The translations under genes were made by a program, and so were the position numbers. Below are positions 20,526 through 25,012 of a stretch of DNA of 64,000 nucleotides, piece after piece. The notes beneath the pieces were generated by a model. That model did not search any database, was not told the DNA's origin, and saw only the letters and a list, made by a program, of their open reading frames with translations. The stretch is from Candidatus Omnitrophota bacterium (GTDB lineage: Bacteria > Ratteibacteria > UBA8468 > B48-G9 > JAFGKM01). The DNA is taken from NCBI GenBank assembly GCA_016928555.1, contig JAFGKM010000033.1:2509-66508 (forward strand). The letters run 5' to 3'. The stretch's first letter is position 1, and the number at the start of each line of letters is the position of its first letter.

Positions 20526-20558
20526 TTGACAATATGTATATGTATAAGTATACTTATA
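20526..20558 (+). promoter_or_regulatory. TA promoter with palindromic operator over the -10
   Basis: TTGACA-N17-TATACT; perfect 16-bp palindrome TATAAGTATACTTATA at 20543-20558. Confidence 0.8.
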
Positions 20559-20579
20559 TAAAAAAGAGAGGCTATTAAA

Positions 20580-20810
20580 ATGGATAGAAAACTTACGCTT
20601 TTGATTGATGAAAAAGTTTGCAGAGAACTGCGGTTCCTGGTGCCGAAAAGGAAAATGAGCAAGTTTGTGGAAGAAGCCCTGAAAAAGAGAATTGAGCAGT
20701 TAAGGGAAGATGACCCTGTGGCAAAAGGGTTTCAAATGATGGGGAAAGACAGGCAGAGAGAAAAAGAGGCGGATGAATGGAGCGAGGCGGGTATAGCTGA
20801 GGAATTTTGA
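20580..20810 (+). CDS. Ribbon-helix-helix antitoxin (MazE/CopG-like)
   Basis: 76 aa, KLTLLIDE..MSKFVEEALK RHH pattern, acidic EADEW tail; TGATG overlap with toxin. Confidence 0.8.
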   Translation: MDRKLTLLIDEKVCRELRFLVPKRKMSKFVEEALKKRIEQLREDDPVAKGFQMMGKDRQREKEADEWSEAGIAEEF

Positions 20811-21139
20811 TGGAGATAAAGAGAAGCGACATTTTTTGGGTTAATCTTGAGCCGTCTGTAGGCGGGGAAGTAAAGAAAACCCGTCCTGCAGTTGTTGTTA
20901 GTACAGACAGGGCAAATCCCTACCTTAACAGGGTGGTTGTAGTCCCTCTTTCTTCCAGAACCGAAAAAGTATATCCTTCAGAGGTTAAAGTTTCCATGGA
21001 AGGCAAGGAGCATAAAGCAATGGCAGACCAGTTAAGGGTTGTTTCAAAAAAGAGGATGACGTCAAAGATAGGTGTTTTATCCTCGGAAGACATGAAAAAA
21101 ATAGAAGAGAAAATAAAACTGTTTTTGGAGCTGATATAA
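20810..21139 (+). CDS. mazF: PemK/MazF family endoribonuclease toxin
   Basis: RSDIFWVNLEP.VG.E.KKTRPAVVVS, VVVPLSS, MADQLRVVSK.R; stop overlaps gltX start (TAATG). Confidence 0.9.
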   Translation: MEIKRSDIFWVNLEPSVGGEVKKTRPAVVVSTDRANPYLNRVVVVPLSSRTEKVYPSEVKVSMEGKEHKAMADQLRVVSKKRMTSKIGVLSSEDMKKIEEKIKLFLELI

Positions 21140-22581
21140 TGGTTAGAGTAAGATTTGCGCCGAGCCCCACCGGCTATCTGCATATCGGCAATGCAAGGAC
21201 TGCGCTTTTCAACTATCTTTTTGCGCGCAGGAATAATGGCAGTTTCATCTTGAGGATTGAAGATACCGACAGGGAGCGTTCGGCGAAGGAATACGAGACG
21301 GCTTTGATGGAAGACCTCAAGTGGTTCGGGATTGACTGGGACGAAGGTCCGGATGTCGGTGGAGATTTCGATCCGTACAGGCAGATGGACCGCCTGGATA
21401 TCTACAGAGAGTTGTCGGAGAAACTGCTCAAGGAAGGCAAGGCCTATAAATGTTACTGCACAAAGGAAGAGATAGACGAAAGGAACAGGCAGGCGGGAAG
21501 AAACGAGTCTTCCGGATATGACAACCACTGCAGGGACTTGACGGCAGAGGATGCGGCGAAGTTTGAGAATGAAGGAAGAAAGCCGGCTTTGCGGTTCAGG
21601 TTCCCGCAAAAGACCGTTAAGGTGAACGACCTGATAAGGGGAGAGGTTACATTTGAAAGCGGGCATATACCTGATTTCGTCATCATGAAGCCGGACGGCA
21701 TGCCTGTTTTTCACTTTGCCGTTGTTGTGGATGATTACCTGATGAAGATTACGCACGTTGTCAGGGGCGAGGACCATCTTTCAAATACGCCCAAGCACAT
21801 AGCGCTCTTTGAGGCGCTGGGAGCGCCTGTCCCCCAATTTGCGCACATGTCCATGACTCTGGGGCCCGACAAGACACGCTTGAGCAAGAGGCACGGCGCC
21901 ACTTCCGTAAGGGCATATAAAGACGAGGGTTATCTTCCCGAGGCCTTTTTCAACTATATATCCCTGCTCGGATGGGGGGCTGAAAACAGCCAGGATATCT
22001 TTTCAAAAGAAGAGCTTATACAGGTTTTTTCAATAGAGAGGTGCCAGAAGGCGAGCGCAGTCTTTGATCCTGACAAGCTTCTTTGGATGAACGGTTATTA
22101 CATGAGAAAAACGACTCCGGAAAGAATTCTGGAGCTGTCAAAACCTTTTCTTGAAAAATCGGGCGTTATAAAAGACGGGCTTTCCGCAGAACAGGTTGAA
22201 TATCTTGAAAAGGCGGTTGCCCTTGAACAGGAGAAGATAAAACTGCTGAAGGAAGTTCCGTACCATATCGGTTTTTTTGTTAAAAATCCCGACTACGAAG
22301 AAAAAGCCGTTAATAAATACCTGACGGAAGCCGGCAAAAAGGTTCTGGCGGAACTTCTTCCCGCGCTTGAAGGATGCAAAGAGTGGACAATTGCAGGCCT
22401 GGAAGGGGCAGTAAGGAGTTTTTGCGAAGAAAAAGGATACAAGCCGGGGGATGTTTTTCATCCTGTAAGGGTGGCTGTCAGCGGCAAGACAAAGGGTCCC
22501 GGACTCTTTGAGATGCTTGAGCTTCTCGGCAGTGAAAAAGTGACAGAAAGGATAAAGCGTTTTACGGAGGGGGCCTCATGA
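21139..22581 (+). CDS. gltX: Glutamate--tRNA ligase
   Basis: [33 protein letters not shown]. Confidence 0.97.
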
Positions 22582-23108
22582 TTACCAAGGAAAAATGCGA
22601 AGAGCTGAAAAAGAAATCCCTTGAAATACTGAAAAAAGCAGGCATAGTTATTACGGACAAAGAGTACAAAGAGATGGAAATCGCAGATTTCGGTTTGGGC
22701 ATGCCGGAGATAATCGGGCTTGAAATTGTCGTCTATGAAAACAATGACCGCTACTGCGCCAAGGAGTTGATAATGTTTCCCCGCCAGGTATGCCCGGAGC
22801 ACAGGCATCCTCCGGTTTCTTCAAAGCCGGGTAAACAGGAGACCTTCAGGTGCAGGTACGGGGAAGTCTATCTTTATGTCTCCGGGGGAAAAACTAAAAA
22901 TCCGAAAGCGGTGTTGAAAGAGAGAAAAGAATATTTTACCGTATGGAATGAGATAATATTAAAACCCGGTCAGCAGTACACCCTTCCTCACAATACCCTG
23001 CACTGGTTCCAGGCAGGAGACGGGGGAGCGATAGTGTCGGAGTTTTCTTCATCCAGTTCCGATGAGACGGATATATTTACCGACCCCGGCATAAAGAGGG
23101 TGGAATGA
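22578..23108 (+). CDS. D-lyxose/D-mannose family sugar isomerase (cupin)
   Basis: DFGLG, YCAKEL...[29 protein letters not shown]. Confidence 0.85.
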
Positions 23109-23111
23109 TAA

Positions 23112-24509
23112 ATGATAAGATTCTATAACACCTTGACGAGGAATAAAGAGGAGTTCAAGCCCATCAAAGAAGGCAACGCCGGGCTTTACACATGCGGGCC
23201 TACCGTATATGACCTGGCGCACATAGGCAATTTCAGGGCGTATATCTTTGAAGACCTTCTGCACAGGTATCTTGAATACGGCGGGTATAAAGTGTTGAGG
23301 GTGATGAACATCACGGATGTTGACGACAAAACCATCGCCGGATGCGAGAAAGAGAGTGTGAGTTTAAAGGAATATACGGACAGGTATCTCACCGCTTTTC
23401 TTGAAGATATGGAGATACTGCGGCTGAAAAAGCCGGATTACCTGCCGAGAGCGACAGAACATATCCCCGAAATGGTATCCCTTGTAAAGAAACTGCTGGA
23501 CAAGGGATATGCGTACGAAAAGGACGGCGCGGTATATTTCAGCATAGCAAAATTTCCTTCTTACGGGAAGATGGCAGGGATAGACCTTTCCGAAATAAAG
23601 TCCGGGGCGAGGGTGGACGTCGACGAATACGAGAAAGAGGATGTGCGCGATTTCGCGTTATGGAAGGAAGAGAAAGAGAGCGTATTCTGGGATACGGAAC
23701 TGGGCAGGGGCAGGCCCGGTTGGCATATAGAGTGCTCTGCAATGAGTATGAAGTATCTCGGGGAGAGTTTTGACATACATACCGGAGGCGTTGACAATAT
23801 CTTCCCCCACCATGAAAACGAGATTGCCCAGAGTGAAGCGGCGACGGGAAAAAAGTTTGTGAACTACTGGATGCACTGCGCCCATCTTCTGGTGAACGGC
23901 GAGAAGATGTCAAAGTCCAAAGGCAATTTTTATACGCTGAGGGATATTTTGAAAAAGGGATACAACCCCGTTGCCGTAAGATACCTCCTGCTCTCCGCCC
24001 ATTACAGGGACCCGCTTAATTTTTCCGAGAAAGCGCTCAAGCAGGCGGAGAATACCGTGAGCAATTATAACGCATTTTACCAGTCCCTTGATTTCTGCAA
24101 ATCCGGCATAGGCAATAAAGAGATAAAAGCAGATATAGAGAAAGCAAGAAAAGATTTTACGGCCGGACTTTCCGACGACCTTAACATATCGGCCGCCCTT
24201 GCCGGAATTTTCAACCTTATAAAAACCGTAAACATAGCCGTTTCCGAAGGAACCCTCGGGCCTGAAGATGCAGGCGATATAAAGGGTTTTCTTGAGGAGA
24301 CAGACAATGTGCTGGTCATCCTGGATAAAGAGGAAAGAAAATTGTCCGGAGAACAGCAGAACCTGATAAAAGAAAGGGAGCAGGCAAGGAAAGACAAGGA
24401 CTTTAAGAAATCTGACGAGATAAGGGATGTTTTCAAATCGCAGGGCATTCTTCTTGAAGATACACTATACGGAACCCGCTGGAAAACCGTCAAAAAGGGT
24501 ATAAAGTGA
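23112..24509 (+). CDS. cysS: Cysteine--tRNA ligase
   Basis: YTCGPTVY...HIGN, GRPGWHIEC, HTGGVDNIFPHHENE, KMSKS. Confidence 0.97.
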   Translation: MIRFYNTLTRNKEEFKPIKEGNAGLYTCGPTVYDLAHIGNFRAYIFEDLLHRYLEYGGYKVLRVMNITDVDDKTIAGCEKESVSLKEYTDRYLTAFLEDMEILRLKKPDYLPRATEHIPEMVSLVKKLLDKGYAYEKDGAVYFSIAKFPSYGKMAGIDLSEIKSGARVDVDEYEKEDVRDFALWKEEKESVFWDTELGRGRPGWHIECSAMSMKYLGESFDIHTGGVDNIFPHHENEIAQSEAATGKKFVNYWMHCAHLLVNGEKMSKSKGNFYTLRDILKKGYNPVAVRYLLLSAHYRDPLNFSEKALKQAENTVSNYNAFYQSLDFCKSGIGNKEIKADIEKARKDFTAGLSDDLNISAALAGIFNLIKTVNIAVSEGTLGPEDAGDIKGFLEETDNVLVILDKEERKLSGEQQNLIKEREQARKDKDFKKSDEIRDVFKSQGILLEDTLYGTRWKTVKKGIK

Positions 24510-25012
24510 AACGGTACATTTCTAACTTCCTCCTTAATTTTTTCCCTCTCCGCCTGGGGGAGAGGGTCAGGGTGAGGGGGAAGGGCATTACCCTTCTTGA
24601 AATACTTGTGGTCATGGCGATTATCGCCGTTTTATCCGCCATTGCCACACCCGCATTGGGAAATGCAAGGCGACGCGCCATGTCGGTAAAGACAGAGTCT
24701 GTTATCGCATCCATTGAAGCGGCGCTATCCATGTACGGAACGGACTTCGGAGACTATCCCGCATTTGAAGGAGAAGGGACCGGGAGTCTTACTGAGCTTC
24801 TTCAGGGCCCCGTTGAAAGCAGGTTCTGGAAAGGCCCTTACATGAGATTTAAAACTGCGGATATTGACGGGGGAAATAACATCCTTGACGCTTGGAAAAC
24901 TCCTCTCTCTTACAGATATCCCCAGGATGGACATACAAATGTTCCTTATATAATTATCTCTGCCGGGCCTGACAGGGAGATGGGAACCGCCGATGATATC
25001 GGCAACTGGTGA
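24506..25012 (+). CDS. GspG-like pseudopilin with palindromic repeat inside its leader
   Basis: G|ITLLEILVVMAII; WKGPY, DAW.TP..Y, IISAGPD...GT.DDIGNW GspG C-terminal motifs. Confidence 0.85.
   Translation: MKRYISNFLLNFFPLRLGERVRVRGKGITLLEILVVMAIIAVLSAIATPALGNARRRAMSVKTESVIASIEAALSMYGTDFGDYPAFEGEGTGSLTELLQGPVESRFWKGPYMRFKTADIDGGNNILDAWKTPLSYRYPQDGHTNVPYIIISAGPDREMGTADDIGNW
24544..24580 (+). repeat. Family B hairpin element in frame in prepilin leader
   Basis: CCCTCTCC-GCCTGG-GGGAGAGGG-TCAGGGTGAGGGG translates as PLRLGERVRVRG; related to intergenic copies at 38459 and 39739. Confidence 0.75.

Follow-up and report, generated by a model that had tools for sequence, protein, structure and literature searches.

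What drives transcription of gltX and cysS, the genes for glutamyl-tRNA synthetase (GluRS) and cysteinyl-tRNA synthetase (CysRS), when a mazEF-like toxin-antitoxin (TA) gene pair ends on the very start codon of gltX? The question is raised by a stretch of 64,000 nucleotides (nt) of contig JAFGKM010000033.1 from a Candidatus Omnitrophota bacterium, here termed the window; positions are those of the window unless a comparison locus is named. The contig is from a sediment metagenome, and its GluRS groups with metagenome-assembled genomes labelled Ratteibacteria or Omnitrophota. About 170 gltX loci were fetched for comparison, and close relatives are those whose GluRS is 62-93% identical to that of the window. 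The explanation that is considered probable here is that a mobile TA cassette has replaced the gltX promoter and that the promoter of the cassette, P_mazE, drives the operon. The features concerned are as follows.

20526-20554, + strand: P_mazE, sigma70-type promoter (TTGACA at 20526-20531, 17-nt spacer, TATACT at 20549-20554)
20543-20558, strand not applicable: putative operator, a perfect 16-bp palindrome TATAAGTATACTTATA centred on the -10 hexamer of P_mazE
20580-20810, + strand: mazE-like antitoxin gene, 76 amino acids (aa), ribosome-binding site GAGAGG at 20566-20571
20810-21139, + strand: mazF/pemK toxin gene, 109 aa, start overlapping the mazE stop (TGATG, 20808-20812)
21127-21141, + strand: mazF/gltX junction, GGAG at 21127-21130 in the last mazF codons and TAATG stop/start overlap at 21137-21141
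21139-22581, + strand: gltX, glutamyl-tRNA synthetase, 480 aa (Pfam tRNA-synt_1c and Anticodon_2)
22578-23108, + strand: cupin gene, 176 aa, weakly D-lyxose-isomerase-like (Lyx_isomer, E = 9e-7), ATGA at 22578-22581 overlapping the gltX stop
23112-24509, + strand: cysS, cysteinyl-tRNA synthetase, 465 aa (Pfam tRNA-synt_1e), after a 3-nt gap (23109-23111) that follows the cupin gene

The genes mazE-mazF-gltX-cupin-cysS are all on the same strand and are separated by -1, -1, -4 and +3 nt. Their ribosome-binding sites are, in gene order, GAGAGG, GAGGA, GGAG, GGAGGGG and AGGGTGG. The original prediction had described a promoter with a perfect 16-bp palindrome over its -10 hexamer and a chain of junctions, i.e. 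TGATG (20808-20812), TAATG (21137-21141), ATGA (22578), a 3-nt gap and GTGA (24506, before the gspG gene). All of these are borne out, and every coordinate given for the promoter and its palindrome matches the sequence.

The state of the locus in relatives shows what the window has lost. The gltX-cupin-cysS-gspG genes form a conserved block in close relatives, and the gltX genes of all relatives are orthologues of the window gltX. In about ten of these (loci L162, L163, L165, L166, L003/L082/L171, L084, L005/L083 and L087) a native gltX promoter, TTGACC-17-TAGAAT, is located about 45 nt before the ATG and is followed by a purine-rich ribosome-binding site. It is within an intergenic region of 35-140 nt, and directly 5′ of that region is either a GntR-family regulator in divergent orientation (PF00392 and periplasmic-binding domains) or a homologue of the window gene at 17041-19032. 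In the window this upstream gene is retained together with about 65 nt of homologous intergenic sequence, and the homology breaks off shortly before the point at which the native -35 hexamer would be. The 2.1 kb between the upstream gene and gltX are taken up in the window by repeats and two TA cassettes. Thus the native gltX promoter is gone from the window. The proposal in the original prediction that a TA module inserted between gltX and its promoter is therefore strongly supported by synteny. The native promoter of the relatives (T-rich/TTGACC, 17 nt, (G)TAGAAT, 40-60 nt 5′ of gltX) is kept despite saturated synonymous divergence, and it provides a reference for the appearance of a promoter in this uncultured lineage.

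P_mazE, with a score of 11 out of 12, is the top sigma70-like site within positions 19300-26200, and its predicted transcription start is near position 20561. The palindrome lies inside a conserved spacer with GTATA-type repeats (20532-20558). Exactly one perfect 16-bp palindrome occurs in the whole window and block shuffles give an expectation of 0.8 per 64 kb, thus the statistical weight of the palindrome alone was rejected as an argument. It is credible because of its position over the -10 hexamer and its conserved core, not because of its rarity. The core AGTATACT, both hexamers and most of the spacer between them are kept in every homologous cassette found (five genomic contexts), and the hexamers and their 17-nt spacing are identical in six out of six cassette copies compared. 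The outer arms of the palindrome are variable; all eight pairs are present in the window only, and 6-7 of the eight in the other cassettes counted. The operator is a single site in the window, where 0.07 is expected, and no second operator site is present elsewhere in the 64 kb. An inverted repeat overlapping the TA promoter is as expected for type II TA autoregulation, and its conservation over the -10 hexamer suggests that the cassette regulates its own promoter. The original prediction treated autorepression by conditional cooperativity as established for type II TA complexes. That premise is too broad, since not all type II TA systems show conditional cooperativity and S. aureus mazEF has no autoregulation whatever (PMC3920265). 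In the mazEF cassette described here conditional cooperativity is a possibility.

The cassette is found both fused to gltX and free of it. A fused TAATG mazF/gltX junction is present in the window, in L167-L170 (four samples) and in L002. Free cassettes are found in an island of HicAB, mazEF and Phd-PIN modules that lies 4.5 kb 5′ of an unfused gltX (L171), in front of an AAA-ATPase gene (L175) and right behind an rve-family transposase gene (L176). From start codon to stop codon every copy measures 560 nt, and the alignment of the copies is gap-free, with DNA identities of 75-95%. The similarity between copies starts abruptly at the -35 hexamer and ends at the stop codon. Free copies (75-80% DNA identity) have the same promoter and operator, and mazE and mazF are equally conserved in fused and free copies. 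The mazEF pair is thus mobile, and this is the pattern expected of a self-contained TA cassette that owns its promoter and operator. An assembly chimera at the junction with gltX was considered and rejected, because the same junction is found on independent contigs from at least seven samples; the carriers are L001, L167-L170 (four samples), L002 and a DNA contig from run X6 covering L002 positions 577-1915.

The 3′ end of mazF in the fused copies carries the ribosome-binding site of gltX. The GGAG is 8 nt before the gltX ATG, and the third- and fourth-last sense codons of mazF read (C/T)TG GAG (Leu-Glu) in each of the three fused lineages. At these codons the free cassettes carry CTT GAC or CTT GAT (Leu-Asp), without a GGAG. 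The GGAG has therefore evolved in the fused copies only, with an Asp-to-Glu change. In relatives the ribosome-binding site was supplied by the native leader of gltX, and the GGAG in mazF takes that role.

In the GluRS tree the window has L167 as its sister lineage (200 of 200 bootstraps); their GltX proteins are 93% identical and the synonymous divergence (dS) of gltX is 0.63. Both are fused, thus the fusion predates the window/L167 split. L002 is fused yet groups with unfused species that have an intact native promoter (182 of 200 bootstraps), and the fused lineages accordingly fall in two separate GltX clades. This placement of L002 shows that the fused state arose at least twice or was passed laterally. 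A sliding-window comparison of gltX displays no recombination tract, i.e. no 5′ stretch in which L002 is closer to the window or L167 than to its unfused relatives. The arrangement is rare: among 161 gltX loci from many phyla, a PemK gene is directly upstream of gltX in these three lineages only. A full-text literature search found no description of a TA module upstream of gltX; the known TA-GltX link, phosphorylation of GltX by HipA, is unrelated.

The toxin gene is well defined. Its product matches the Pfam PemK_toxin family (PF02452) at residues 4-106 of 109 with E = 2e-28 and 99.1 bits, against a cutoff of 23.1, and matches the NCBIfam MazF model with E = 2e-15, which is under that model's cutoff. 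Among PDB entries, 25 MazF/PemK chains are found at E ≤ 1e-3. The nearest solved structure is that of M. tuberculosis MazF9 (E = 5e-16, full-length alignment), with the R-P motif aligned. The toxin K-T-R-P-A-V motif, which aligns with this R-P of MazF9, is invariant in six out of six cassettes, and a P-L-S/T-S segment is kept as well. Both are presumed here to be catalytic, as in the MazF proteins of E. coli and B. subtilis.

The 76-aa first open reading frame has no significant Pfam match. It is called an antitoxin by its position, its size, the overlap with the toxin start, its constant place before the PemK gene and weak ribbon-helix-helix (RHH) hints. A gene of the 76-aa type is directly 5′ of the PemK gene in 11 of 11 loci examined, whatever the flanks, and all 17 homologues are 76-78 aa in length. 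The RHH matches are weak (Pfam RHH_6, E = 0.036; RHH protein PDB 4aai, E = 0.26, residues 2-43); the antitoxin is a putative ribbon-helix-helix protein. An AlphaFold2 monomer model from 17 close homologues is all-helical and of low confidence; at a predicted local distance difference test (pLDDT) value of 58 it was taken as unusable.

Among the fused lineages the ratio of nonsynonymous to synonymous divergence (dN/dS) is 0.05 for mazE and 0.07-0.12 for mazF, with dS greater than 1. This indicates purifying selection and not a decaying leader, and together with the kept R-P motif it suggests that both TA genes remain functional. No second mazEF copy was found in the 64-kb window. As to what the toxin cleaves, MazF9 (MazF-mt9; PDB 6kys/5hjz) is a tRNA-cleaving MazF (PMC4756823, PMC6620280). 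The likeness of the window toxin to MazF9 is one of sequence similarity. The original prediction had also pointed to the frequency of MazF motifs in gltX and cysS. Ten short motifs (including ACA, UACAU, UCCUU and CUCCU), chosen as candidate MazF recognition sequences, were compared with synonymous-codon shuffles, and the counts in gltX and cysS give neither a depletion nor an enrichment signal that can be interpreted. UUUC is about 2-3 standard deviations high in both genes.

Signals that could separate gltX from P_mazE were sought along the operon. A sigma70-like site of at least 9/12 is not present between P_mazE and gltX in any fused lineage, and no terminator-like site is found on the + strand within 20580-25100. 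The mazF/gltX junction displays no unusual RNA structure (z = +0.57). A search of Rfam gives no leader or riboswitch upstream of gltX, and no match at E ≤ 1 except a chance microRNA match on the hairpin described below. P_mazE is favored as the driver of gltX because the native promoter is absent, there is neither a site of at least 9/12 nor a terminator, the junction fold is plain and no Rfam leader is present. A strong promoter inside mazF was the finding that, in the original prediction, would separate gltX from the cassette; no sigma70-like site of at least 9/12 was found there, although a weak 8/12 site is present.

The transcript data come from metatranscriptome contigs. RNA of the window organism was sought in three metatranscriptomes of the same study, with only cross-matches from other organisms found. 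For the L002 species, which lives in anaerobic-digester and landfill communities (runs X6-X19), three metatranscriptomes contain contigs with 99-100% identity over mazEF, at L002 positions 904-1398, 934-1399 and 980-1178. This evidence consists of contigs at very low depth. The contigs begin 33-63 nt downstream of the predicted start site, and no RNA contig of the three runs covers L002 positions 1-903, where the upstream Phd/PIN TA module and the promoter are located. For gltX there is one 178-nt contig (1839-2016). The cassette is thus transcribed in situ in the L002 species, and its mazEF RNA is more abundant than its gltX RNA. Transcription in this species probably starts at P_mazE rather than upstream.

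Co-transcription of mazE-mazF-gltX-cupin-cysS from P_mazE is, on the whole of this evidence, likely. Whether the TA proteins also control the GluRS and CysRS genes is evenly balanced; it is plausible that the two synthetases are under TA control and translationally coupled to the toxin gene. In favor of this are the absence of a sigma70-like site of at least 9/12, of a terminator and of RNA structure at the junction, and the GGAG in mazF that is specific to the fused lineages.

Several observations weigh against P_mazE as the driver of gltX. No RNA contig crosses from mazF into gltX, and coverage is zero over L002 positions 1400-1838 in the three metatranscriptomes. The mazEF contigs of two independent runs end at L002 1398/1399, i.e. 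51 nt before gltX (window 21087-21088). The weak 8/12 site, 25 nt before gltX, is common to all three fused lineages, and the promoter scan covered sites of the sigma70 type only. The putative DNA-binding fold of the antitoxin is drawn from weak matches. No second gltX is present in the 64 kb of the window. The contig ends at 1398/1399 might reflect a real RNA 3′ end, RNA processing or a gltX that is transcribed separately, or else the assembly may have broken in the A-rich stretch because depth was low. The alternatives to be weighed involve the following additional features.

21087-21114, + strand: weak promoter-like site AAGACA-16-GAAAAT, 8/12, 25 nt 5′ of the gltX ATG
19033-20525, + strand: rest of the material that separates gltX from the upstream gene (repeats at 19016-19476, second TA cassette)
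19523-19552, + strand: promoter of the second TA cassette, TTGACG-18-TACAAT, TG-extended, from the sigma70-like scan
19571-19903, + strand: DUF6922 gene of the second TA cassette, overlapping the AbiEii gene
19852-20478, + strand: AbiEii nucleotidyltransferase gene of the second TA cassette

The TA pair and gltX could be adjacent yet transcriptionally independent, with a cryptic promoter in the 3′ part of mazF, either the site at 21087-21114 or one of a type outside the scan, driving gltX-cupin-cysS. The 8/12 site is at a suitable distance from the ATG and leaves the GGAG in the leader. It is present in three out of three fused lineages, and free cassettes, with GACG or GAAA in place of GACA at its -35, are under the 8/12 threshold. 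Also, the position at which the mazEF contigs of the two runs stop is the first base of the -35-like hexamer, and the coverage of gltX is lower than that of mazEF and detached from it. However, sites of this quality occur by chance about four times per kb per strand and the site is not significant; its -10 (GAAAAT or AAAAAT) is without the first T and has no TG extension, and no RNA contig starts downstream of it, L002 positions 1400-1838 being without coverage. Near-consensus sequences are seen in this group in the native gltX promoters as well as in the TA promoters, and a much weaker replacement in front of an essential operon would be surprising. An independent gltX promoter of this kind is therefore regarded as unlikely.

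Transcription of gltX-cysS could otherwise come mainly by read-through from upstream, from the AbiE-like TA promoter (19523-19552) or from beyond it, in which case P_mazE and its operator would modulate this transcription or act as a roadblock. It is consistent with read-through that no terminator-like site is found from the AbiEii stop (20478) to P_mazE, that L167 retains a 70-nt relic of the AbiE promoter region directly 5′ of P_mazE although the genes are gone, and that in L002 the Phd/PIN module upstream has a promoter of its own, TTGACA-17-TATACT. Yet no RNA of the L002 species was detected over this upstream TA and the intercistronic region (1-903) while mazEF is covered in three runs, and each of the three fused lineages has a different sequence upstream while P_mazE is invariant. 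Read-through as the main source is judged quite unlikely. It is more doubtful still, and very improbable, that the cassette is a decaying relic with an inactive toxin, whose small open reading frames act as a translated leader that gives a promoter and ribosome loading to gltX. The promoter alone could explain why the cassette is retained; but mazE and mazF are full length in all lineages and have the low dN/dS values given above despite a dS greater than 1, the PemK profile matches the toxin end to end with the R-P motif and PLSS segment kept, and fused copies are as conserved as free ones.

The favored explanation, replacement of the gltX promoter by the cassette, can be set out as a series of steps. 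A mobile type II cassette, with an RHH-like antitoxin and a PemK/MazF endoribonuclease, would have landed immediately upstream of gltX, after which the native gltX promoter was lost. The space between the cassette and gltX would then have been lost by compaction, until the stop of mazF and the start of gltX overlapped in TAATG, and the GGAG for gltX would have evolved in the last mazF codons. The resulting operon would be mazE-mazF-gltX-cupin-cysS, with gspG behind a hairpin and with P_mazE as the main promoter, which read-through from the upstream AbiE-like TA operon may supplement. The antitoxin or the TA complex would repress P_mazE at the palindrome, making GluRS and CysRS expression negatively autoregulated and roughly constant; degradation of the antitoxin would lead to derepression and a rise in expression. 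Ribosomes that terminate at the mazF stop may re-initiate at the overlapping gltX ATG with help of the GGAG. Clean loss of the cassette would silence the essential gltX/cysS operon and the cassette would thereby be locked in. Such silencing upon deletion would explain why the cassette is retained, and to call it “undeletable” is a reasonable inference.

A more far-reaching form of this proposal sees the cassette as a self-locking mobile promoter. It would have captured gltX-cysS at least twice independently, or once with subsequent lateral transfer, and would then have become non-deletable and been adapted to the host gene by way of the embedded ribosome-binding site. In addition, GluRS and CysRS might be made in stoichiometric amounts with a toxin that resembles MazF9 and possibly cleaves tRNA. 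If true, tRNA charging capacity and toxin dose would be set by one autoregulated promoter. This form is considered unlikely.

The region upstream of the cassette is highly variable. The 3′ end of gene 17041-19032 is duplicated over 40 nt (19016-19055 and 19157-19196), three tandem 41-nt units are located at 19191-19313, and a G-rich hairpin motif, CCCCCTTTG(T/C)AAAAGGGGG..., is found twice (19319-19351 and 19444-19476). This filler at 19016-19476 looks like small repeats that accumulate at an insertion hot spot. No terminator-like site separates this region from the cassette between the AbiEii stop and P_mazE. In L167 the sequence upstream of mazE (3401-4210) is a mosaic into which four window segments, 6734-7014, 9637-9900, 11101-11224 and 19519-19588, have collapsed; in the window they lie 2.6, 1.2 and 8.3 kb apart. 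The last of these segments, 70 nt with the promoter region and start of the AbiE cassette, is the relic directly 5′ of P_mazE. The mosaic points to large insertions and deletions in the neighborhood, including loss or relocation of the homologue of gene 17041-19032. As the flanks of the window and L167 differ so strongly, the TA-gltX joint is a stable unit in a plastic neighborhood.

Other genes near gltX may be noted. The cupin displays the metal motifs HxH...E and PHNxxH and is found between gltX and cysS throughout the group; it is 70-86% identical in relatives, i.e. about as conserved as GluRS. L162, L163 and L084-L086 have an additional gene of 358-375 aa without a Pfam match between the cupin gene and cysS (L162, region 4059-5135), which is absent in the window. 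In the distant locus L131 (Ga0209692_10000078) an 81-aa open reading frame with a CxC...CxxC zinc-finger pattern ends 11 nt upstream of gltX. It is taken here to resemble YgiT/MqsA-type antitoxins and may be another small regulator or TA component beside gltX.

At the other end of the operon, gspG had been described in the original prediction as part of the tightly coupled unit. The features of this end are:

24526-24584, + strand: inserted hairpin element of about 60 nt, core CCCTCTCC-GCCTGG-GGAGAGGG, between the cysS stop and the likely gspG start
24572-25012, + strand: gspG-like pseudopilin gene (Pfam T2SSG and N_methyl); the longest open reading frame starts at GTG 24506

The hairpin element is in frame, lengthens the gspG open reading frame by 22 codons and is absent from relatives. 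The GTGA overlap of cysS and gspG at 24506-24509 belongs to this lengthened open reading frame and exists only because the element inserted in frame. In L162 and L003 the prepilin leader has five residues, MRNRG or MRKTG, before ITL(L/V)E, and the in-frame GTG at 24572 of the window gives MRGKG before ITLLE. By this comparison GTG 24572 is the more likely gspG start. The fold of the 111-nt stretch at 24490-24600 that includes the hairpin has -46 kcal/mol and z = -3.2, and there is no U-tract. Thus gspG is probably separated from cysS by a 62-nt structured spacer and may be expressed at a different level, which weakens the claim of tight coupling. The hairpin is possibly a transcript end or a stabiliser. 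Its core (24540-24580) is matched at about 90% by DNA and RNA contigs of other organisms from the same study, and the element appears to be a widespread small repeat. Downstream of gspG there are two perfect 25-nt direct repeats, GGTAGCCGCAGGTCTTTAGCCTGCG, at 25056-25080 and 25091-25115, each with a small hairpin. A weak terminator-like hairpin with a T-run (25133-25145) precedes the likely ATG (25153) of a lipoprotein-like metallophosphoesterase gene.

The nearest known arrangement is that of mazEF and sigB. In S. aureus, transcription from the mazE promoter continues past a weak terminator after mazF into the sigB operon, and a shorter mazEF transcript is also made (PMC3920265). In Listeria monocytogenes mazEF is directly upstream of the sigB operon and is co-transcribed with it (PMC5308263). 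In these species, as in the window, a chromosomal MazEF-family pair heads a housekeeping or regulatory operon. The ndoAI/ndoA arrangement of B. subtilis is presumably a parallel to mazEF-sigB. The sigB operon keeps its own promoters, whereas in the window the downstream native promoter is lost, there is no spacer (TAATG overlap), no terminator was found and the ribosome-binding site is inside mazF. Further, the cargo in the window consists of aminoacyl-tRNA synthetases and the arrangement recurs in two clades. Unlike S. aureus mazEF, which is not autoregulated (PMC3920265), the window cassette has a conserved putative operator over its -10 hexamer. The arrangement in the window is a tighter, promoter-replacing form, which may work in a way similar to mazEF-sigB.

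In E. coli the mazE-mazF pair is co-transcribed with a third gene, mazG, and is autoregulated at a palindromic operator (PMC3920265). In contrast to the cargo of the window, mazG, a small accessory gene, has a modulating effect on the TA response and is not an essential operon deprived of its own promoter. E. coli mazEFG is downstream of relA, and its antitoxin has an AbrB-type fold, which differs from the RHH hints for the window antitoxin. TA cassettes with their own promoters are also present in integron arrays of otherwise promoterless cassettes (PMC11014356). There, as here, a mobile TA module brings a promoter upon which downstream genes may depend, and it clusters and reshuffles in islands. 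The downstream genes in the window, unlike those of integron arrays, are core housekeeping genes, and no integrase or attC site was seen, no dedicated search for these having been made. With respect to the synthetase genes themselves, B. subtilis has a gltX-cysE-cysS operon with a T-box leader before cysE. The window likewise has gltX and cysS in one operon with one gene between them, but here the middle gene is a cupin gene and not cysE, and Rfam detects neither a T-box nor another leader.

TA modules are usually viewed as dispensable, mobile and self-contained, yet at this locus one has displaced the promoter of two essential synthetase genes. Fused and free copies in closely related genomes allow a direct comparison of the effects of fusion on the operator, on mRNA processing and on toxin activity. 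If transcription from P_mazE is confirmed, the cassette would be an example of a selfish element that owes its fixation to promoter capture and not to post-segregational killing. Genes essential for translation would then be under a control that depends on the ratio of antitoxin to toxin, and the locus would illustrate a simple way in which core operons can be rewired by TA promoters.

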